A DNA stretch of 63,982 nt, the filler included, from Asterionella formosa (Eukaryota): NCBI GenBank assembly GCA_002256025.1. It is 4 parts of 4 records of this genome, joined end to end, with 100 filler letters (N's around TTAATTAATTAA, not from the genome) between each part and the next. Parts side by side here need not be neighbours in the genome. Positions count along the whole stretch, not along the records: positions 48,457 to 63,982 come from NKIB01005383.1; 3 more parts are not named here. One strand, given 5' to 3'. This document shows, piece by piece, positions 16,170 through 58,689 of the stretch; position 1 is the first letter of the stretch; each line of letters opens with the position of its first letter. The position numbers and the translations under genes were made by a program. Below the pieces are notes generated by a model that was given only the letters and a program-made list of their open reading frames with translations, had not been told where the DNA came from and did no database searches.

Positions 16170-16359
16170 CCTGGTCTGTTCATTAAAACGACTGCCCTAA
16201 CGCAACAAAGAATAAGTAATAATAAGAAAGGATACGAAATGTGGCATTCCTACAATCCCAGCTCATAAATAAAGAAAGCAATACTGTATACGACAGGTTG
16301 GTACGGAGTATATTACACGAACATATCGGTAGATCCTGCCTTGCAATTAACGTTCTTGG

Positions 16360-16710
16360 CTACCTGGTACTGGTACCTGCAATAGGTACGGTACCATCAG
16401 ATAAATTCAATGCACGCATGTACAAAAGTATCAGGTACCTGGTACCTGGTACCAGGTACCACAGGTTGCGTATAGTAGATACCCAGGTACCTGGTACTGG
16501 TACCTCGTACTTACAACGGACAGTACCTGGTGCTACCGGTATACCAGGATACTGGTAACAGCACCTGGTACCTCTGGTACCTGGTACCACAAATTACTGC
16601 TACCTGGTACCTGGTACCTTTTACGAAATACAGGTAGGTCGTATGTAGTGCTACCGAGACTTTGTATACCTGTTAGTGCCTGGTACCAGGTTACCAGGTA
16701 CCTGGACCGT
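16360..16710. repeat. Dense GGTACC / TACCWGGTA palindrome array
   Basis: About 15 GGTACC by manual count in ~350 bp, built from 7-mers (GGTACCT/GGTACCA) in both orientations. Confidence 0.9.
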
Positions 16711-22191: not shown

Positions 22192-23501
22192 CGTCAAGGC
22201 AGATTACTCAGAAGTAGCGATCGCGGTGGCCGGTAGTTTACTAGTTGTCTTCTTATATTGATGTAACCATCACGGAAGGTGGGAAGCGAAGCCTACGAGG
22301 ATCTACAAACCAAAACTACCTATCATACCGGTATGATGCACATAATGTATAGGAATCACGGCGTCTCTGCTTGGGGCTGGCGCGTCGTGGTGTGGGTTTT
22401 GGGCCTGATTGAACGGGGAGTCGTTGTTGAACACCATACCGTATCTTTCGACAATCTCCCGTCCGGCCGTCGCTCACACTGACGTATGTGTTTCTCCATC
22501 ATCATCAGTCGCTCGTTTCGTATGCAGAGCGAACGCGAGGCTCGAGCTTGCTACTGGCACTGGTACTTACCCTGTTACCAGTCGTCTATGTACCAGGTAC
22601 AACGAATAGTAAGTGTCGGTAGTCTACCTGGTACAAGGTACCATTACAGGGTACCGGTAGTTTAGTCCATGGACATACCGGTACCAGGTAGTAGATTCGA
22701 TTCATGCATTATCCTCCTGTCTTTCTTTTATGTAAAAGCAACTCTACTTTAAGCAAAATGATAGCAAATGGCACAATAAGCAAAACAGATTGGTCTCAAT
22801 ATTTCAGGCCAAATCAGATTAAAGCTAAATATATATAGGAACAACAAGCCGGTCGGGTTGGGTTATTAAACGGATATCAAGAAGAAACACATTTATCAAT
22901 TTGGAATTGGAATCAGAATTGCCGGAACAACGACGTCGTACGTGGAACTAGATATAGCAAAATTAACCCAACTTGCTGGTACTATGTAGCACTACCGGTT
23001 AGTCCAGAATATATTTTGCTGTATTTATATGCCGGTATATGTATAGCAATAATGAATATAAGACACTGAAATAAGAAAGTGCAACCTCTGTTCTGTCCAC
23101 AATCCCCTTGACTTTGCCAGTCACCTTATCTCTCATGAATTGGTACTTGGTACCGGCATACCGTTGCCTCACCATGGCAAACGAGTGGTGCACAGGACGG
23201 AGAGATTAAAGTCTACCGAAAGCGAGTACGCAGTGAAGTGGCACACGACCCTAAAACAACCGGACAAAAGCATACACAATGAATAGAGTTATATCAACGG
23301 GTCACCTTCGTTCCCTGGCTTTCCGAAATCAGCACGCTAAAGATGTTCAATGGCGACTGCTCCATATTCGATCTGCGTATATCAGGGTAATCCCGCGGAT
23401 GTCCTGATGTCGATGTTGTCCCGGCAAATTCGTAGTCATCCATCGGAAATACTCCGCCTTTTTGCAAATCACAACGATGAGCACAATTCTCACTTTTCAT
23501 C

Positions 23502-25604
23502 ATGAGCAGATACGAGAGTACGAAAATGAGCAAGGCTTCTCGCAACAAGACGACAAAGCGCCAGGAGGAGAAATTGCAAGATGTCGACGTGGATGATCGA
23601 TCTGCTGCTTCCTGGAAGCTGCCCGAAGCCGTCTCAGTCACCGGCGACGACGTGGAACCTGGACCGCCTTTGGTTTCGTCGTCAAGCAGATCAGTGTCGG
23701 CTCGGACTTCGATTGTGAGAAAGGACACAAGGTCGAATCAAAAGGCTCTTACCGAGCACTCTGGAAGTACCCATCGCCGCCGTTTCATTATCTGGGGAAG
23801 CATAGGAGCGGCCTTGCTTGCAGCAATTGTTCTCGCGCTTTTGTTTCTTGTGGGACCTCTCGGAAGCACGAGTAGCTCGTCACCTAGTGATCCAAAGGTT
23901 GAAAATGACTCTAATTTTACCATGACGCCCCGCGAAGCAGCCTTGATTAGCATCATGGCAGTCGTCTCTCCCATTGGACTGAACGACGAAGGATCCGCTC
24001 AGTATTTGGCAAAAGAGTGGCTCTTTCATTTTGATTTGCTCCAGCTCACTCCGTCTGCCACTACCAGCAATGACACGATTATTCAGAGATATGTTCTGGC
24101 CGTGTTTTACTATGCAACAAACGGTCCGAAGTCATGGGCAGCAAATAACTGGCTCGCAGGTGGTGAATGTGTGAATTTGTATTGGACTGGAATAAGCTGT
24201 AACGATTACCACCAAGTTCGTGCTATTGCATTTGGTAGGTTTCTGTGTTGTTCTTTTCTGAAATAAGCTGTTGCAACGAAACGAAGGCTAAACATTTCAT
24301 TTTACGCAGACAATGCCGGACTTGAAGGTTATATCCCTGAGGAGCTTGGAGCCTTGTCCATGTTGGAAAACTTAATCATCAAGAATCATCCCAAGATTGC
24401 TGGTCATATTCCAACCACCTTGGGAAAACTTGCTGTGCTTGAACAACTTGGATTATACGAAAATGCATTGACTGGCGGTATTCCATATGAATTGTACAGC
24501 GCTACCAAACTAAACTACATCAATTTGCAGGGTAATCAATTGCAAGGAGGTCTCACTGTTCACATTGAGAAATTGCAAAACCTCGAGAAACTTATTCTTT
24601 TCAACAACAGGTTCAATGGAGGAGTCCCAATTAGGCAAATGGCGAAAACCGGATTGCGCTTGTTGGGTCTTGGCAACAATTGTTTTGAAGGGACAATTCC
24701 AAAACAAATCTCCAACCTACTTAATTTGGAATACCTCTATCTTAATAATAACAACTTCACGGGAACATTGACTCCGAACTATGGAAGGTTGACAAATTTG
24801 GGTAAGCAACGAAATTGTGTGGATTGAAGCAGCGTGGTTTCATCGTTTGCTAACTTCATCATCACAGTGTCAATGAGTCTTGATAATAACGCTTTTAGTG
24901 GAAACATCCCCAGCGAAATTGGAGGAGCAACTTCACTTGCTTTCTTTTCGATGCAGAAAAATCAGGCGACCGGAACTATTCCAAGCCAGATAAATCAACT
25001 CAAAAATCTTCATACGCTGAATTTGGCAACTAACTTTCTCAATGGAACGATTCCTTCCACAGGAGACATGAATTCTCTCGTTAATCTCTATCTCTACCAA
25101 AACCAGTTGACTGGAACAATGCCTTCGATGCTTGGCGATATGAAGTCTTTGGAGATTATCTTTTTGAGTTCCAATAAGTTATCCGGATCCATCACGCCTA
25201 CGCTTAGTAACGCAAGTGCAACCCTTAGGGGCCTTTACTTGTCCGACAACGGCTTAGATGGAACAATTCCTGCAACACTGTGTGCGCTAAGCACTTTACA
25301 CTCCCTATTTTTGGACACGAACTATTTGACGGGCTCAATGCCGTCGTGTCTCGGAACCTTGACTTTACTTCAAAAATTGTATGTTTTCCATAACAAACTG
25401 TCTGGGGAAGTTCCCACATCAATTCAGGAACTTCGATCATTGAATGGGCTGGGACTAGAGAACAACAATTTTGTTGGAAGTGTTCCGTTGGGCATTTGCC
25501 GAATTAGCGCTCTGAGCGATCTCTGGTCTGACTGTGGAGGATCGAATCCCGAGATTGCTTGCACATGCTGCACGACATGTTGCCCATCGTCTTCTTGCCA
25601 ATAA
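23502..25604 (+). CDS. Membrane-anchored leucine-rich repeat protein; exons 23502-24234, 24310-24801, 24868-25604 (~653 aa)
   Basis: N-terminal TM helix, QRYVLAVFYYAT..W...C..W.G..C cap, many LxxLxLxxNxLxGxIP repeats and a C-terminal DC...C.CCT.C cap. GT-AG introns join in phase. Confidence 0.92.
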
Positions 25605-27321: not shown

Positions 27322-27784
27322 CCTCTTTGATATCTTTTTGCTTGGCTTGCTTGCTGGTATGTTTGTTCTTTGAAATGTGAGACAAAAGTGAAAGCAACGT
27401 GCTGAAAGTGAGCGATAGGAAAATGTCAGGGAAAATGGGAACTCATTTCTCAGCGGACGGCCGAGGTACGTACCGATGCATACGAAAAAATTTAAAAATA
27501 ATTTTCTTTTACGTATGATGATCATCAGGCATACCAGTGCCGGTACCCGGTAGTCTCTTTCGTATCATATGTATCCAGAGTATACCGGTAGACTACCTGG
27601 TACCCTGGTACTGGTACCGGGAGCTCTGTAATATGGTGTCCGTATGTATCATGACATCATGAATGGTGATGTTCCATCACCGAAATACCGGTATCATGGG
27701 CCACAGCCAAACAGATACCGTACATGTACCGGTACAGGCATTCGCCTCCACAATGAAACTCCAAGGCAAAAGCCATTTCACAAA

Positions 27785-43925: not shown

Positions 43926-44421
43926 TTTTATGACTAGTTCATAGTAATCATTGGTAAAAATTGATTTGATACCCAGAAAAATTTATTAATACAACAAAGC
44001 TAGTGACTTTCAAATGACCATGGCGGTAGTTTTTAGGACCACTACGGATCTAAAAGCAACCTTTAAAGGCAACAGGCCTGTCTATTTGGATTCATTGGAG
44101 ACTACTATGTACGACTGTTACAGTAAATGGTTGAGTTTGTCTATACAAAAGTAGGGACAGTATAGTGGAACCAGAATTACTAGCTTTGTCGAGTATTTTT
44201 CATGTTTAATGGTGTGACAGTTGTGAGCTTATCTGGTTGCTGAGAAGCTAGTACAGTCATTGGATTTGTAGATAGCCTGCAAGGACTGCAAATTGCTAGT
44301 GTAGATGAATTTAACCATTGTTGTAAATTATCAGTTCTAGAAACTATGACCAAATAAACTGTCTGCGAATCTTTGAGACTCAATCTGTGACTTTTTGAGA
44401 TCTTCTGGTGCCATGATTGTG

Positions 44422-44605
44422 CTTGTTGGTTGTTGGTTGTTGGTTGTTGGTTGTTGGTTGTTGCTTGTTGCTTGTTGCTTGTTGGTTGTTGGTTGTTGCT
44501 TGTTGCTTGTTGCTTGTTGCTTGTTGCTTGTTGCTTGTTGCTTGTTGGTTGTTGCTTGTTGCTTGTTGGTTGTTGGTTGTTGGTTGTTGGTTGTTGTTTG
44601 TTGTG
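44422..44605. repeat. Heptamer tandem repeat (TTGTTGG/TTGTTGC)n with occasional 10-bp units
   Basis: Directly visible. It produces the spurious QQATSNK and CWLLVV ORFs. Confidence 0.95.
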
Positions 44606-45183
44606 AGCGGTTGTGTGTTGTGAAAACAATCTTGTTCTTGGTTTCGTAGATACCATTGCTGTTGCGGCGCTCATAATGCCTTCTGCTGATTCTTGGTAGT
44701 GAGACCATCTGGTATTATTTTCACTTTATTGCTTGTGTGCTTGTTTCTTGTTGTGGGCGCTTGTTGTCACTTGCGTGTACTGAAAACAGTCCTCTTGTTC
44801 TTTATTTTGTAAATGTTGTTTGTTCCTGTTGTGGCGCTTGTGAAAGCATTTGATGCTTCGGTGGGTGACATTTCCATCGAAGCACTTGTTGGTTGTTGGA
44901 TGAAGTGAGTGCTGAGGTGCTTGCATCAACCTGTTGATTGTTGTTTCCACTAGCTGCATTCAAATACTGTACAGACAACTCTTCGATTTATTTCTGTAAA
45001 ATGGCAGCACTCATGGCATGAGGTTTGAGTACTTCAAGGTAAACAGCACTGTGGAAAAGTGGAGCGAAACATCCCAGTTAGCAGTAGAGTAATTGTCACT
45101 TGAATCAAGCTAATTGTTGTGACAATCCTTTGTATATATATTATGAGAAATTTTGTCTAGCGTCATCGTGATACAACGAAACA

Positions 45184-45879
45184 TGTAAAAGTGAGCTCAT
45201 CTATGTAGTTATGACTCGGAGTCAAACGAGTCGAATGAGTCAACTTTGATGTACCAAGCTCTCATCAACCACACATTTTACGTTGCTACTCTGCCAATAT
45301 TGAGCCGGACAATATAAGCTGTTGAAATTGCGTCCAGAAGCCCTCTATTGCTTTCTTGTATCCTGTAAGGACACGTCTCAGGGACCAAATAGGCTGTAGA
45401 TATGAACAACGATGTTGCAGTAATCGATTGTAATTGTTCCTAAGAGTTTTAGTAGAATTATGGGTTTTACTGGTGATGTAGATTGTTTTCGAATTCTGAG
45501 TTTTCTCTGGTACCATATTCTTTTTGATTCATTCGATTCAATATGTAGTAGGTAATTTATAGCGGGAATTTCTTTCCTAAAATAATTTCTCCAACATAAG
45601 CTGTTTCGGAAGACCGATAGTTTGAAAATGAATGATCATGGTTAAAAACCTATGATCAGTAAGTGTGAGATAGACATGGGTCTATCTATGACTGTATGAT
45701 TCTAGAAATGCAAACAGCATTTTGGAGAATAGTTCGTTTGTTTGTTCAAACAGAACAACCTAAACTAGTTTAGTTAACTCACACTAAGAATTTAGAAATG
45801 GAAAGAGAAACGAATGTCTCTTTCTATAGTCCCCTTTTGTCTAAAGATTTAGATCTACCTAAAAGGTAATACTTTAAAA
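45184..45879 (-). mobile_element. Solo LTR, family B, with 6-bp TSD GAAACA; interrupted by a family A solo LTR
   Basis: Inverted homolog of 53503-53922. GAAACA occurs at 45178-45183 and 45880-45885. Confidence 0.85.
45320..45596 (-). mobile_element. Solo LTR, family A (CoDi-type Copia), with 5-bp TSD TAAGC
   Basis: TGTTG...CAACA termini. TAAGC at 45315-45319 and 45597-45601. Homologous to 57947-58222. Confidence 0.92.
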
Positions 45880-49404: not shown

Positions 49405-50615
49405 CAACCAACTTCGGCGGTTCCACCATCAAAGGAGGGGGTCATGAAAAGTTAAATTATTCGACTATAGAGAAAAGTAAAGAAAGGAAAATAAAAAATT
49501 CCCTAATAACCATTGGCATACCTGACATTCCTGTAGACGACATCTTGGGGCAAAATTCGCATCCGTCATGAAGATTGCTCCATATGGGAACGGTTACCAG
49601 TTAAAGTCATTTTTCAGAAAGGGAAAGTTGTCCTATTAGCTGCAGAGGGGTGATTTCTCCTTAACCTGAAGGAGTAGTAGAGAAAGTATTTATTTAGCCA
49701 ATTTTAGTTATTTATGTCAACTTTTACGACGCTATTATTGCCCTGGCATCTGAATCCTATCCGTAACGACAAGTGCTCCATGTGATACTAACCTACAACG
49801 TACTACCTGGTACCACGCCAATAATGAATAGAATTCGTCAAATTCCTATGTAATTGAATGTCACCGCATCTCGTTTTATGATTGCTGGGCCGCAAACTTC
49901 AACATATCAATCACATCAAAAGGAAATGCCTAAACCTACCGGTACATGTGTTTCGTCATGCTTTCCTGTTTAGCAGAGCAAAGAATCAATGAGCGAACAC
50001 TGGTGTCACAGAAAGGTGGTGTTCTCGTCAGCCATTTCTCCGACTCTCGACATGGTCGAAAATATAGCCCATTCGCAAACAGAGTCAAGCCCAGCACACT
50101 AGCAAGACTCTCATGTCAAAGCGTTCGCTTCAGTCTTTTTGGTTATACTTGTTGCTTGCAGGCCGCGAATTACATTGAAGTGCAAACAAATATATTCAAA
50201 GTTGCTCCGGTAGACATTCAGAGTTCAACAACAATGCCTTCGCTTTCACCATTTTGCGTTCGAAACATATGAGAGATAACATACTGACGAGGAACAACAA
50301 GTATCCCTTCCCGGTACTCTTGTGTCTCATATTGACATCAAGTCAAGCCTTTGCTTATGCTCTCGTGATGTACAAAACATATGAAGGGGTACAGACAAGG
50401 CCCAAAGACATCATCAAAACCACTCCTTATGATCGAAAGGAAATGATGAGAAGCGAACAGGTGAACCGCCGAATGAGAAGCGAATAGGTGAACCTCCGAA
50501 TGATTTACAAATGCGAATTACAAAATTGCAAAGCAAAAAAGCTGATGCTCATAATTTCTCGTTTTTAAACGCATGAACTCTAGATAACTTCTCATATCAT
50601 CGAACGATATCCATC

Positions 50616-51737
50616 ATGAAGCTCCTTCTGATTGCTCCCCTTCTTGCCATTGCTTCTGTGATAGTTGTGCCTGATATTGAGGCACGCATTACGAAGAGGA
50701 AGCGGCATGGCATAAGAGGCCTTCAATCCAACACTAATAACGATATATTTTCCCTGTTGGCCGCCATGCCTGCACCAAAAAAAGGGCCAGCATCAAAAAA
50801 AGGGCCAGCACCGAAAAAACCAAAAATTCCAAAGTGTTCTTATCCCGGAGAATACATTGACCCAGTGTCGAAAATATGTGTGAAGGCTTGTGATGGTTCC
50901 AACAATGTCATTTTGCTTGGAGAGCCATATGATTGTGACACTACTATTGAATTACCTCTTTCCTCCTCTACTGGTTATGAAAAAATTCCACAATCAATTG
51001 TTGGGTTAACTAAGTTGACCTCCTTGGAGTTACATGGATTCAAAAGAAGTATTCCCAGTGAGCTGGGAAAACTCACAACTCTGTCGAAATTGGATTTAGA
51101 AGGTTCTGACCTTTCAGGAATGATTCCTAGTGAGCTGGGCAAGCTCACCCTCCTAACATACTTGAGCTTAAATGGAAATGATCTCACTGGTACCATTCCG
51201 GCTCAATTGAGCAGTCTCAGCAATTTGGGATACATGGATGCTTCAAGAAACTCCCTCAAAGGGACAGTTCCTAAATTGGGCACTAATTTGATTCATCTGG
51301 ATTTAAGCTTTAATAATCTCGCAGGAAGCCTTCCTTCTGACTCAATGACTAAGTTGACATATATGGATTTGGAGGAAAATAAATTTTCGGGGACCATTCC
51401 TGCTCTCTATGGCACTTTCACACTCTTGACATACCTAGATTTAGACCGCAATCTCGACCTCTCGGGACCTATTCCTAGTGAATTGGGTAATTTGCTTGCT
51501 TTGCAAAAATTTTATCTTGACAACAATAATCTCTCGGGACCTATTCCTAGTGAATTGGGTAATTTGCTTGCTTTGCAAGAATTGTTTCTTTACAACAATA
51601 ATCTGACTGGCGACATGCCCTCTCAAATTTGTGATTTGAGAAATTTTTTCGATCTTTATGAACTCGGGGCTGACTGTGAAGGAACATCTCCAGAGGTGAC
51701 ATGTGTTCCACTAACATGCTGCACGCAATGCTTCTAG
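50616..51737 (+). CDS. Secreted leucine-rich repeat protein (373 aa, intronless)
   Basis: Signal peptide, PAPKKG repeats, LxLxxNxLxGxIPSELG repeats and an ADC...C...CCTQCF cap. Confidence 0.92.
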   Translation: MKLLLIAPLLAIASVIVVPDIEARITKRKRHGIRGLQSNTNNDIFSLLAAMPAPKKGPASKKGPAPKKPKIPKCSYPGEYIDPVSKICVKACDGSNNVILLGEPYDCDTTIELPLSSSTGYEKIPQSIVGLTKLTSLELHGFKRSIPSELGKLTTLSKLDLEGSDLSGMIPSELGKLTLLTYLSLNGNDLTGTIPAQLSSLSNLGYMDASRNSLKGTVPKLGTNLIHLDLSFNNLAGSLPSDSMTKLTYMDLEENKFSGTIPALYGTFTLLTYLDLDRNLDLSGPIPSELGNLLALQKFYLDNNNLSGPIPSELGNLLALQELFLYNNNLTGDMPSQICDLRNFFDLYELGADCEGTSPEVTCVPLTCCTQCF

Positions 51738-52798
51738 GATCCAAGAATGTGGACAACCAAAGAATGCTGCATCAAAGCCATTGGTACTCATTTCCCTCCT
51801 CAATCGTCAAGTTTTCTCCCATTCTCTTCATACCTGATTTAGGAATCCGTAAAAAATATCAATCTATCGCTCATGAACCGTCCCAGAGTGTAGATATACC
51901 TTTGGAAACAATAATTCAGGCATACACAGATAAACATTGATTGTACAAGCCTGATATTACACATAAAAACTAAGAAATTAATGTGTCTACTACATACTTT
52001 CTTAAATGTATTCATTTTTAAAATGTTAATTTGTTTAGCTATTCTTAACTAACTTTACGAAGATGGTTGATCTCCTCAGGAATTCCACGGGAAAATTCAC
52101 CAAGGTCATCAAGCTGTTGAGATTTTTCAAGACACTGTACTGTACTCGTCTACCGCTAGCTGAGTTTAACAGACAAAATTGGAGGTGCATCCAATGTGTA
52201 GCAAATTTAGGGTATACTGCATGTATGAATTACCGGTACCTACTACATATTGAATCAAATGAATCAGAAAGAATATGGTACCAGAGAAAACTAAGAATTC
52301 GAAAACAATCTACATCGCCACTAAAACCCATAATTCTATTAAAACTCTTAGGAACAATTACAATCGATTACTGCAACATCATTGTTCATATCTACAGCCT
52401 ATTTGGTCCCTGACGTGTCCTTACAGGATACAAGAAAGCAGTAAAGGGCTTCGGGATGCAATTTCAACAGTTTTAATAGAATTATCCGGCCAGGAAGCGC
52501 TGAAATATCACAATCAATAACAGGCGGACTGTGGAGAGTCCGGAGACAAGATTTGAGGGTACCACCTAAAAACTGAGAGTCAACGTTTGGAAAATTTTGA
52601 ACTGAGAGTCAATGTTAAATCGAGTAAATATTCAAGCAATGTTGTAGCGATTTATGTACTAACCAATAATGATCGTGCTTTGAACTTGTCAATTAGCTAG
52701 CTTTACTTCCGTATTTGGTCCCAAAGATTGCTGTAGACGAGAAATGGAACAAAAAAGCTAAATTAATTTTTACTCCATTCCGTTGGCATCACCTTTTA

Positions 52799-53124
52799 AA
52801 AAGTTAGTATGTTTTTTAGCCCATTTGTACTCCCCACTTATTTGATTGTGCTACCTGCTAACAAGACCTGTGGATCCCTAGTTTTGTTAGCGAAGGTGAG
52901 TGATTGTTGTAGCCGCAGCATTAGTAGGGGAAACTCCGACCGCCTAGGAAGGCGGCACAAGCTGCTTGTAGCTAGGGGGGGGGGAACCCTTCTTGCACCA
53001 CCAGGCAAGACCATGCGGGACGGTAAGGGGTGTGGGAGTCAAACCCAGAAATTGCTTCTCAAAAAAGGAATTGAACCCACAACCTCAGATTAAAGGCAAC
53101 GTGCTTAACCACTAAGCTATTCCC
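52799..53124 (-). mobile_element. tRNA-derived SINE (family 1) with 16-bp TSD
   Basis: Head GGGAATAGCTTAGTGGTTAAGCAC...GGGTTCAATTCC (A and B boxes). TTGGCATCACCTTTTA at 52783-52798 and 53125-53140. Ends in TTTT. Confidence 0.88.
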
Positions 53125-53502
53125 TTGGCATCACCTTTTATATATATACAGGTATTAGAAATTATTTCTGTTGGTAGATTCATTTAGTGTCCGAATTGAT
53201 TTTTTTGCTACGGTAAAATATATAACGACGAAATTTTTCATTTTCTTCTACCCAAATGGAGAACATCATCTGCGACCTCTTGGTGTGACTACCTGAATTA
53301 TTGCATATGAGGATTTGTCCTGAAATCACAAAAATCACCCGTGAAATGAATTGAAACAAGAGGAGGACCACAGGACAGATGAGAACTTGAAGTGATTGAT
53401 ATGCAAGGTCCGAATGAATACTTGACAAATATGCTACCAGTACTGTTATGATTGGCACTTAAAACCTTGATACCTGGCACCGGTAGCTGGTTTTACTAAT
53501 TA

Positions 53503-53922
53503 TGTTAAAGTATTAACTTTTTGATAGATCTATATCGTTAGACAAAGAAGACTATAGATAGAGACGTTCGTTTCTCTTTCCGTTTCTATATTCTTATTGT
53601 GAGTTTACTAATCTAGTTTAGGTTGTTCTGTTTGAACAAACAAACGAACTATTCTCCAAATGCTGTTTGCATTTCTAGAAACATACAATCATAGATAGAC
53701 CCATGTCTATCTCACACTTACTGATCATAGGTTTTTAACCATGATCATTCATTTCAAACTATCGGTCGTCCGAAATAGCTTATATTGTCCGGCTCATTAT
53801 AGTCGGAGTAACAAGGTACAATGTGTGGTTGATGAGAGCTTGGTACATCAAAGTGGACTCATTCGAATCGTTTGACTCGTTTGACTCCGAGTCCTAACTA
53901 CGTAGATGAGCTCACTTTAACA
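53503..53922 (+). mobile_element. Solo LTR, family B (420 bp), with 6-bp TSD TAATTA
   Basis: Perfect 9-bp inverted termini TGTTAAAGT...ACTTTAACA. TAATTA at 53497-53502 and 53923-53928. Strand is arbitrary. Confidence 0.88.
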
Positions 53923-56900
53923 TAATTATAGGATCAACAAAAGTAATAGAAAATAGTTTTTGTGTTAACAATCGAGTTAAAAAAACGGTTTGGGGGTAAA
54001 AAATCTTCATGTATAGATTAAAAATATGTACTGAGAGTCAACGTTAGGAGTCAAAATGGGTAAGACTAAATGGCTTAGATCTCCACAACTGTTTGTTCTA
54101 TTTTAGAACTGATGAATTGATAGCTATCCCCGTTCTATCGACTACAATAAAGTTCGTACTTGGTTCGAATTTTATCATTTACGAAACTTCGATAATTTTA
54201 GTCCAAAGAAGGCGTACTGAAACGTTGTTGACTCTCAGTTTTTAGATGGTACCAGACCATCCAGAGTCTGAAGAAGTCGCACAAGGCGCAAAATGGGTGG
54301 CAAAGGAAAGTTTACCAAGAAGGCTCAGGCCAAGGGCAAGTTTCAAGCCAAGGGAGGGAGCAATAATGCTTCTCACACCAACAAGAAGTCTGTCAATGAC
54401 TACAACTACTACCTCGGATCAGCAAAGCAGGCATCTGACTATGAGTCTACTACTGAGTACCTCATCAACTAGATCAAGAAATTGTTCAACTATGGCAATG
54501 ACATAGGAAATGCGCTCAGAACCAATTAATACATCGGCATGGAAGCCAAGAATGCAGCTGAGCTCTGCAACAGCTGAAGAAGATCGCGCAGTGGAGAATC
54601 GTCAATTTGAAATCGAGTTTAAGGCCGATTACGATGCATATAGCAAAAGGGTACAGACCTAAGAAAATAACACTACCAAGGCGTATGCATCGCTCTGGGA
54701 AAGATTCAACAAAGCCATGAAGAACAAGATCGAAGCGAGATCCAATTACAATAGGATCGAAAATAATCTAATAACATTGCTTATGGCAATTGAATAACAA
54801 GCCTTAAAATTTCAAGAGAATCAATTTTCAATGTCGATCATTTTAGATGCGATGAGAAAGATTTTAAATACAAAGCAAAAGGAAGGAGAAAGTCTGCAAG
54901 ACTACACCAAGAGATTTCGTGTGGCATGGGTTGTGCTCAAGTCACATCTTGGAGGACCCATAATCCTCACCAAGTTCGTTGAAGCCATGGATGGGTACAA
55001 CAAGACAAATACCAAGCTACAAGATAAATTTCGTGAACAAGCTTTCAGTCAATTCCTGGCCTATTTATACCTCGATAATGCGGAAAAAGCCAAATATGGA
55101 TCAATTATGACTGGGCTGAACACTCAACAGTAACTTGGCAATGATCAATACCCGAAGAGTATCACCAAATCAATTAATATTCTCAGTAACCATAGGTTGG
55201 ACGTAACAAATAAACCCAACAGTCACAAGAAACCAGGAGATCGTGATAAAAACAGGGAACAAAAGGATGCAGGGAAGGAAGATGAAGATGCGAACTTATC
55301 GTTTGCACAATTAGAAGGAAAATGATACTGCTGTGGAAGAGCTAGACATAAATCATCATCATGTTGCAAGAAGAAGAATAAACCCAAAGAGAAATGGACA
55401 ATCAATAAAGCCCAACAAAATCATCATCGATTACCTTTCTAAAATTTGCCGCGCCTGATGATAAAGATTTTAGTTACAGAATCAGCAAAGAAACCCGAAT
55501 TAATAGGACATCCCTGTATTACAGTCCTCGGACTATGCTCGACATTGCCAGTATACATTTGGTACTTATGTCCAAGCACAAGAAGAACCTGTGTTTTCAA
55601 ACACTAATGCACCACACAGCCTACATTGCATTTATCTACGCTACAATGACAACCTGCAAGGAGTTCATGAGTTACTAGACCTACCAACAAATTCATACAT
55701 CACAAGACATACAGTTGCTCCTCTACCACTTACACCAGCAATCACACCCTTGCTGTGCAAGAAAATATGACAGATGGTCTCAAGTTATCTAATCGAACGG
55801 GACAACTAATTTACAAGTGCTTGAATTGCAGGAGTGGATTATGACAATGAAGCATTTGAAGATGCATATTATTAAGATTATGAAGATCAACAAGCTGGTG
55901 ACAATGAAAGTAATGATGAACTGCTCGGAGAAGACTAAGATGAAATGGCTCCGGATGAAAAATATGAAGCAAAACAGTTTGAATTAAACAATATCCAAGA
56001 GGATTACCCTGAAACTGAGGGCAACAATGAAAATAATGTTGAAATGAATGCAGATGAAATCCAAGATGAGGATGAAGAAGAACCAGTGAATGAAACTGAG
56101 AATGAAGAGGCAATGTTAGTAGGAAAAGTCAATCCAAGCACTAAGGATGACACAATCCAAGCACTAAGGATGACACAGACCCAAATTTTAGAATTACAAG
56201 TTCTGGAAGGGTCTCAAGACCACCAACAAAACTAACTTAACATCATTTGCAAACCCAAGCACACTGTCAAGAAGAATATACCACTAATAATGCGAAATTG
56301 ATCGCAATGACAATGTGTCATACTTTGAATGAGATGTCTTTCAATAAATTGTTCATTCATACAGCTTATCAAAATGTCTCAAGAAATTTGGCCAGAAAGG
56401 AAGGGATACTGCGTATAAGTAAATGAAATAACTACATGATAAAGTTGTATTTGAACCGATTAGGGTTGAAGACCTAACAGAGCACGAAAAGCGACGCGCA
56501 ATGGAAAGCATAAATTTCTTGGTTGAAAAGAGAGATAAGAGTATTAAAGGCAGAGCTTGTGCCAATGCCAGTTCTCAACGTGAATATATGGAGAGAGATG
56601 AAGCAGCTAGTCCAACTACCATAACTGAATCTGATATGATAACAGCAACAATTGATGCGAAGCAAAATCGCGATGTTATGGCGGCAGATATAACCAATGC
56701 ATTTGTGCAAGTGGATATCGATGAGAAAGAAAAAGGGGAACAAATCATTATGAAGATTAGAGGCTTACTTGTCAAAATGTTGATAGAACTCAGCCCCAAG
56801 ACTTAAGAAAAATATGTTATTTATGAAGGCAACAACAAGGTTCTATATGTTAGGATGATTAAGGCATTATATGGCATATTACAGTCATCATTGTTATATT

Positions 56901-58689
56901 ACAAGAAATTTCAGAAGGATATTGAGTCAATTGGATTCATGGTCAATCCATAAGATCCATGCATTGCAAATCACATTGTTAATGGCAAACAGCATACAGT
57001 TACTTGGCATATAGACGATTTGAAATCTAGTCACATGAACAGCAAAGTGAACAATCAAAATACGCTTCTGGCGAAATTGGTGAAGTCAAGGTCATGCGTG
57101 GAAAGAAGCATGATTATTTGGCTATGACGCTAGATTACTCTATTCCAGGAGTGTTGAGGTTTGATATGACTAAATATGTGAAATCCATGATTGACGATTT
57201 TCTAGATAAACTTGAATGTGTCGGAATATTTCCATGGACAGATAAATTGTTCACAGTTGATACAAAATCAAAGAAGCTTGAATATGAAAGAGCAAAAATA
57301 TTTCATACTTTTGTTATGAAAGGAATGTTCCTTCGTAAGCGAGGAAGACAGGACATTCAACCAGGAATTTCATTTCTGACAACCCAAACTACTGAACTGA
57401 ATGAAGGCGATTGGGTAAAATTAGTCAAGAACATGAATTTCTTGAAAGCAACTCAAAATAATGTTGCGTCTACGAGTGCTGATGACACTCATTAAATGGT
57501 ATGTTGATGCGGCATTTGCGGTAGGCAAAGACTTTAAAAGTCATACAGGAGCTATATTGTCACTTGGAAATCCAATCATTTGTTCTATGTCTACAAAACA
57601 GAAAGTGAACACGAGAAGTTTAACTGAAGCAGAATTGGTTGGTGTCAACGACATTATATCAAAGGTGTTGTGGACGAAATTATTTATTGAAGCACAAGGA
57701 CACAAGGTGACTACGAATGTCATTTACCGTGACAAAACTAGCGCAATGAAGCTAGAAGAAATGGAAAAGCAAGATAAGGAAAATGCACCCAACATTTCAA
57801 CCATAAGTATTTTTACATCACTTACCTTATTGAAAAAAGGAATTACAGAATGAATACTGTCCAACGGATGCAATGATTGCAGACTACATGACAAAACCAC
57901 TATCAAAATATGAATTCAAAGTAAGCATCCGTGTCCAGCAGGAGTGTGTTGCAGAAATTATTTTAGGAAAGAAGAATCCCGGTATGGATTACCTACTACA
58001 TATTGAATCGAATGAATCAGAAAAAATATGGTACCAGAGAAAACTAAGAATTCGAAAACAATCTACATCGCCAGTAAAACCCATAATTCTATTAAATTTC
58101 TTAGAAACAATTATAATCGATTAATGCAACATTGTTGTTCATATCTACAGTCTATTTGGTCACTGACGTGTCCTTACAGGATACAAGTACGCAATAAAGG
58201 GCTTTGGGACGCAATTTCAACAGTACCATTTCTATGATGGTTACTTGCGTGCCGGTTTGTTGCAAAAATTTGATAAGTCCATCATGGTTGCTCTTGCTAA
58301 TGATAACAAGCAAACAATACAGTTACTGTTGTGAATGAAGGAGCAGTAGATGCATTAATTAACAATTTTAAGTCTATATTTGTTAATTCAATTTCTACAA
58401 AAATATAGAGTGAATAGTTTGTCCTCCCAACAAATGATGACATCGGATGATTGTTGGAAATGGCTGGCTGGACACCTCATGGGACAGCGGGCAAAAATGT
58501 TTCCAAATTTATCAACCTGCACCTAACAGCCTCCTTCCCATACAGCAATCCTGAATCGCCACTCCCGTCTGCCTCCGAACATGATGATGAATCAACAAAG
58601 GTACCCAAGTCTCCTTTCCCAAGATTATTAACTCTTGATGCCTTCTGTATGTCTCCTTGTTGCACTAAGCAAACTGTGCCTACTACTTG

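Follow-up and report, generated by a model that had tools for sequence, protein, structure and literature searches.

A six-base TA-CCGG-TA insert in a Copia-type LTR of Asterionella formosa as a probable transposon excision footprint

The insert and its host retrotransposon

The window, that is, the whole stretch of 63,982 nucleotides (filler included) analysed here from the A. formosa assembly GCA_002256025.1, consists of four contigs joined by N spacers. One contig carries a Copia-type retrotransposon with its pair of LTRs, and a solo LTR of the same family lies on a different contig (Table 1). The internal region is 84% identical in DNA to a paralogue with an RVT_2 match above the cut-off (one of three paralogue ORFs scanned). 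The host element has the features of Ty1/copia, namely TG...CA LTRs, a five-base target duplication (at the solo copy) and RVT_2 (in the paralogue). The GTACC after the 3' LTR is presumably a target duplication whose 5' partner is lost. The break in the 5' LTR falls 8 bases upstream of the motif studied here, and the 5' target duplication is missing as well. We did not find the missing 35-base LTR head elsewhere in the window, and the DNA upstream of the 5' LTR had no match among the loci compared. The same truncated junction at 52223 is present in run X2. It is possible that the LTR truncation and the scar described below stem from the same break.

Table 1. Position and basis of the features at the locus and of the related solo LTR
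Feature	Position	Strand	Basis
TACCGGTA (TA-CCGG-TA)	52231..52238	.	six bases gained at TA; probable excision footprint
Empty, sample-variable TA in C-TA-A context	49789..49790	.	contig comparison, runs X2 and X4
5' LTR, Copia-type, first 35 bases missing	52223..52469	+	LTR alignment
CCA-family terminal-inverted-repeat element, 1688 bases, between two TAs	52562..54249	.	inverted-repeat ends
Degenerate Copia-type internal region	54250..57946	+	weak gag and RVT_2 matches below cut-off
3' LTR of the Copia-type element, without the insert, then GTACC	57947..58222	+	LTR alignment
Solo LTR, other contig, without the insert, GCTTA target duplication	45320..45596	-	LTR comparison

Several other features were observed in the window. 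Leucine-rich-repeat ORFs are located at 50577-51737 and 24828-25604, with the truncated LTR about 490 bases downstream of the first. The CCA-family element contains another repeat (53520-53920) that has a second copy on the third contig (45219-45837); the solo LTR is inserted into the latter copy, and the former shows the empty site. A seven-base tandem array of the TTG(G/C)TTG type occupies 44400-44620.

In the 5' LTR, the palindrome contains six bases that are absent from the corresponding site of the 3' LTR and of the minus-strand solo LTR, as a preliminary description of this DNA had reported. That description counted three LTR copies; the family in fact has more than 200, and genome-wide patterns with at most one mismatch gave 2 filled against 224 empty copies. 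The long form, checked across genomic copies as a possible ancestral state, is thus the rare one, in agreement with the proposed gain by insertion at a TA. The polarity also held up among the 30 best copies, where 5 of the 10 other minority variants of the filled 5' LTR are common to its own insert-free 3' LTR. Therefore, the insert is the derived state and was gained after the retrotransposon had integrated. A TA doubled at the gain, in a copy that is derived relative to its empty homologues, is what characterizes a footprint of the Tc1/mariner-pogo group.

The other carrier is a solo LTR elsewhere in the genome (L008), which has no other minority variant in common with the filled 5' LTR among the 30 best copies. 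Because the two carriers lack any other common variant, shared descent of the filled LTRs was rejected, and their sequences indicate that the six bases were probably gained twice independently; a very short gene-conversion tract is possible. L008 bears a further insert at C-TA-CA, which reads T-CCGG-TA. Near the site, the LTRs of L021 and L026 read TA-TG-TA at the next TA and are probably alleles, with near-identical flanks, and the LTR of L030 has a nine-base duplication spanning the site.

We compared samples through the assembled contigs of sequencing runs rather than through raw reads. Over 51550-52259 a contig of run X1 is identical to the window, reaching only about 21 letters beyond the motif. 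Run X2 belongs to a different sample and study; its contig, over 51541-52322, has the insert and shows 18 substitutions and 0 gaps across 782 bases. In X4, the contig that crosses the site has 4 gap letters only, and therefore does not lack the whole insert; among the contigs listed for run X3, none crosses the site. The presence of the insert in X2 rules out both an assembly error and a recent or strain-private insertion, and the two LTRs of the pair differ at 17 of 235 bases, so the palindrome was not caught in the act of being created, as had been suggested. A second site does vary between samples: the TA at 49789, in a C-TA-A context, is empty in the window and in X2, and has TACCGG inserted in X4 only. 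This would be the same scar as TACCGGTA.

Indel class, abundance and flanks of the palindromic words

The insert belongs to a recurrent class. Between repeat copies, over approximately 0.99 Mb of compared sequence (unpolarised, with near-identical contexts merged), the change from TA to TACCGGTA accounts for 16 of the 88 six-base indel sites. Among seven-base indels, 5 of 47 are TA-CC(A/T)GG-TA, two of them hard to separate from tandem duplication. TA-CCATGG-TA, the 3+3 form of CCA ends, occurs once as an indel. When the census was made stricter and polarised, TA to TACCGGTA made up 5 of the 13 gains of six bases, counting L008 with one substitution. The insert at 52231-52238 stands outside both censuses, as it does not pass the flank filter owing to the truncation of its LTR. 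The expectation that indels of the CCGGTA, CCTGGTA or CCAGGTA type would turn up in other repeats, and more often than other six-base indels, was thus borne out.

The commonest small gains among the repeat copies L001-L142 are of a different kind, in which two bases, whatever their identity, are doubled around a short core. The core is C or G in 38 of 40 three-base gains with a two-base ambiguity, and GC in 28 of 34 four-base gains with a two- or three-base ambiguity. The inverted order GC hints at hairpins opened by an element that duplicates two bases.

The words themselves are abundant. The window alone holds 22 TACCGGTA and 18 TACC(A/T)GGTA. In two separate 200-kb samples of large contigs, TACCGGTA occurs at 40 and 44 times, and TACC(A/T)GGTA at 55 and 39 times, the second-order Markov expectation, against 0.7 to 1.1 times for the control palindromes TAGGCCTA, TACGCGTA and TACATGTA. 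Over 464 kb we counted 167 TACCGGTA and 189 TACC(A/T)GGTA, and found no TACCGCGGTA, the full 3+3 form. Extrapolation from large contigs, which may be unrepresentative, gives about 25,000 and 28,000 words per genome, respectively. The general density is about 0.6 TACCGGTA words per 100 TA (145 per 24,592). Long ORFs, which make up 32% of a 400-kb sample, contain only 5 of 145 TACCGGTA, a scarcity that follows if frameshifts are purged. Dense chains of TACC(A/T)GGTA and TACCGGTA that share TAs occur between long ORFs at 16350-16710, 22300-22700 and 27500-27740.

The base outside the TA differs between the two words, and we compared it with the same base at the ends of resident transposon families, named here after their terminal letters. 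Counts of A/C/G/T are 2/3/25/1 for CCA ends (non-nested, n=31), a flat 11/14/12/11 for CCG ends (n=48), 12/31/100/13 for TACC(A/T)GGTA and 57/42/46/16 for TACCGGTA. TACC(A/T)GGTA flanks do not differ from CCA ends (p 0.32; second 200 kb, p 0.23) and differ strongly from CCG ends (p 1e-5; second 200 kb, p 7e-6). For TACCGGTA the order is reversed, with p 1e-6 (second 200 kb, 3e-7) against CCA ends and p 0.075 (second 200 kb, 0.10) against CCG ends. These results tie TACC(A/T)GGTA to the CCA family and exclude that family as the main source of TACCGGTA. The TACCGGTA flanks are weakly compatible with the CCG families; the fit is weak because CCG flanks are themselves like ordinary TA (p 0.24-0.27). 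Of the TACC(A/T)GGTA flanks, 72 of 228 were nested, against 13 of 174 CCGG flanks. The flanks of TACCAGTA and TACTGGTA deviate from the CCA profile, and these two words may be old CCGG scars altered through CpG decay.

Candidate donors and the excision model

A profile search of the genome with PF03184 (DDE_1) gave 93 matches, while a search with PF13358 (Tc1-type DDE_3) gave none from 16 candidates; the latter search is lossy, as a family A protein (see below) scores E 3e-8 on PF13358. One CCG family, family A, is about 2.46 kb long, with short terminal inverted repeats and CCG/CGG ends between TAs. Its end pattern occurs 145 times in the genome, and it includes young copies, several of them 99.9-100% identical. 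The open frame of 421-433 residues matches DDE_1 at E 1e-21 with a D..D spacing of 35. Together with its inverted repeats and TA duplication, this domain and spacing assign family A to the pogo-like DD35D transposons. A second CCG family and one CAG family are also present.

The CCA family (ends CCA/TGG) has 483 ends in the genome and likewise combines terminal inverted repeats with TA duplication. One member sits inside the same retrotransposon, 324 bases downstream of the insert, at a GGG-TA-CCA target whose homologues hold a single TA in 39 of 41 matched stretches (some loci overlap). Single-TA empty sites were seen for both CCG families and for the CCA family. Two fragments of the CCA-family protein gave no Pfam match, and the protein has no BLAST similarity to family A; it resembles DDE_1 by Atlas features only, which score 0.97 to clusters with PF03184 in 29-63% of their members. 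The inner letters of both words are therefore those at the ends of resident TA-targeting elements, of which roughly 75 CCG and 240 CCA copies remain, so that, by extrapolation, there are hundreds of scars for every element now present.

Some further elements were recorded. Family A occurs at three loci of public metagenome contigs (L224-L226) at 96-99% identity; one of these copies lies directly within a TACCGG-TA scar, and none of the three loci provided a usable empty site. Other TA-flanked inverted-repeat elements are L126:23-3256 and L132:328-1324 (both CCAG), L129:3286-4041 (CAG) and L133:9353-9576 (CAT).

Taking these data together, the insert is probably a footprint, and we consider it rather probable that it was left by the excision of a CCG-ended pogo-like transposon through a three-base overhang. 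After integration of the retrotransposon, a DNA transposon of the pogo-like kind, or a non-autonomous relative of it, bounded by CCG...CGG would have entered the TA of the 5' LTR, doubling it, and later have been excised. The break would leave a three-base 3' overhang, CCG, on both sides, whose terminal CG pairs could anneal, and gap filling would then produce TA-CCGG-TA. For the CCA...TGG family, the ends would be joined over a one-base A:A mismatch to give TA-CC(A/T)GG-TA, and blunt fill of the CCA overhangs would give CCATGG. As the CCA family prefers GG-TA-CC targets, half of which its own scar supplies, its scars may grow into chains.

The stagger of the cut is two bases in Tc1 and Tc3 and three bases in mariner and Sleeping Beauty. 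The preliminary description had proposed a Tc1/mariner footprint retaining two bases from each end. A footprint of the wider Tc1/mariner-pogo group is supported; the donors, with PF03184 and no PF13358 match, are likely pogo-like, and the figure of two bases is doubtful, since CC(A/T)GG, which is just as common, cannot result from a stagger of two bases, and three-base ends give both words. Among 41 and 8 CCG ends and 36 CCA ends, we came across no site that holds an element in one copy and TACCGGTA in the other. A genome search for the CCA element's own site yielded one short insert, TA-C-TA, and no CC(A/T)GG, and a paralogue of a CCG insertion site (L203 vs L197) reads TA then CCCGG, with its far flank missing.

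It seems rather unlikely that the footprint came from another donor or geometry, such as CCA-family ends cut back to two bases on each side, or a CC- or CCGG-ended family that escaped our scans. Both known families begin with CC, the neighbouring CCA element occupies a TA-CC site, and T is under-represented beside TACCGGTA (about 10%) relative to known CCG ends (23%). Yet G makes up about 80% of the flanks of the CCA family against 29-31% for TACCGGTA, and scanning about 1 Mb of loci de novo for inverted repeats revealed no recurring CCGG-ended family. Local templated repair or template switching, with no transposon involved, would copy TACC back as GGTA and resume synthesis two bases earlier. 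The empty site reads TA-CC, so that the insert is the reverse complement of TACC followed by CC or, in another notation, a TACC doubled around GG; the LTR site underwent this change two times, and a deletion breakpoint lies just upstream. Because fold-back copying gives the same letters in this context, the single site is a weak witness. For the class, by contrast, templating is refuted: TACC or GGTA is present at the empty site of only 2 of the 16 TACCGGTA indels, only TA is in common in 7 of 16, and the CCGG of most of these indels has no local template. Neither the X4 insert, at C-TA-A, nor the second insert of L008, at C-TA-CA, has one. In addition, two events in 226 copies are near the general density of words per TA, and other TA-flanked palindromes show no enrichment. 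We thus regard templated repair as improbable for the insert at 52231-52238, where the context is ambiguous.

Equally little weight, or slightly less, falls on a host enzyme or abortive transposase activity that writes CC(N)GG at TA without a full cycle of insertion and excision. The excess of words over surviving elements and the lack of an element-and-scar pair among the ends examined would suit such an activity; the letters of the words and their flank bias, on the other hand, fit the ends and target choice of resident elements, and the rarer 3+3 form TA-CCATGG-TA exists as an indel. We know of no enzyme that writes CC(N)GG at TA sites. Selection of the word as a regulatory site, or an assembly error behind the insert, is very improbable. 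The scarcity of words in long ORFs might be expected of regulatory sites, and similar oomycete words have been proposed as factor binding sites (PMC3520976, PMC10031896), but frameshift purging explains the scarcity, and the words appear as six-base gains within dead transposons. An assembly error is countered by the contigs of both X1 and X2, which contain the insert.

Relation to known footprints and to oomycete motifs

The excision footprint is a known kind of event; its abundance and the split between two families are what is notable here. End-joined excision of Tc1/mariner elements leaves a footprint between doubled TAs (PMC2874221), generally of 2-4 bases and of 0-3 for ZB (PMC7913693), and Passer, a pogo element, leaves 0-4 bases (PMC9976928). 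The footprints of Tc1, Sleeping Beauty, ZB and Passer described in these sources resemble the present words in placing a few end bases between two TAs. The Tc1 scar TACATGTA, as cited in PMC3520976, has the same palindromic TA-4-TA shape as TACCGGTA and is called rare in C. elegans, unlike the A. formosa words; the letters differ too, being CCGG and CC(A/T)GG in A. formosa. Here each family has one dominant product, and no other non-homopolymer word of 8 or 9 letters is more enriched in the sample. Family A is like the pogo DD35D elements with Passer-like spacing in its TA duplication, inverted repeats, DDE_1 domain and spacing of 35, and differs from them in its CCG ends. We found no reports of such scars in diatoms in the literature searched (mostly papers free of subscription).

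Comparable words are known from oomycetes. In PMC3520976 and PMC10031896, Phytophthora motif-1 TACATGTA and motif-9 GTACCGGTA and Plasmopara streme-5 ATACCGGTAT are, like the A. formosa words, abundant TA-flanked palindromes, and lie upstream of genes. Motif-9 and streme-5 contain the eight letters TACCGGTA. Both studies read the motifs as factor binding sites, unlike the scar reading given here, and PMC3520976 rejected a footprint origin of motif-1 for its abundance and conservation.

Tentatively, the A. formosa genome may preserve, resolved by family, the fossil traces of tens of thousands of excisions, with CCG pogo elements leaving TACCGGTA and CCA elements leaving TACC(A/T)GGTA, rebuilding their own target and producing tandem arrays; the same process may have made the oomycete promoter palindromes. 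Excision scars would then be a main source of small insertions in the genome, at hundreds per surviving element. Each scar word would report its family of origin and how the ends were cut, a testable prediction for pogo transposases. Motif finders can take scar words for regulatory sites, and the same eight letters were listed among upstream motifs in two oomycete studies. If the same process made the oomycete palindromes, some proposed stramenopile binding sites would be transposon scars.
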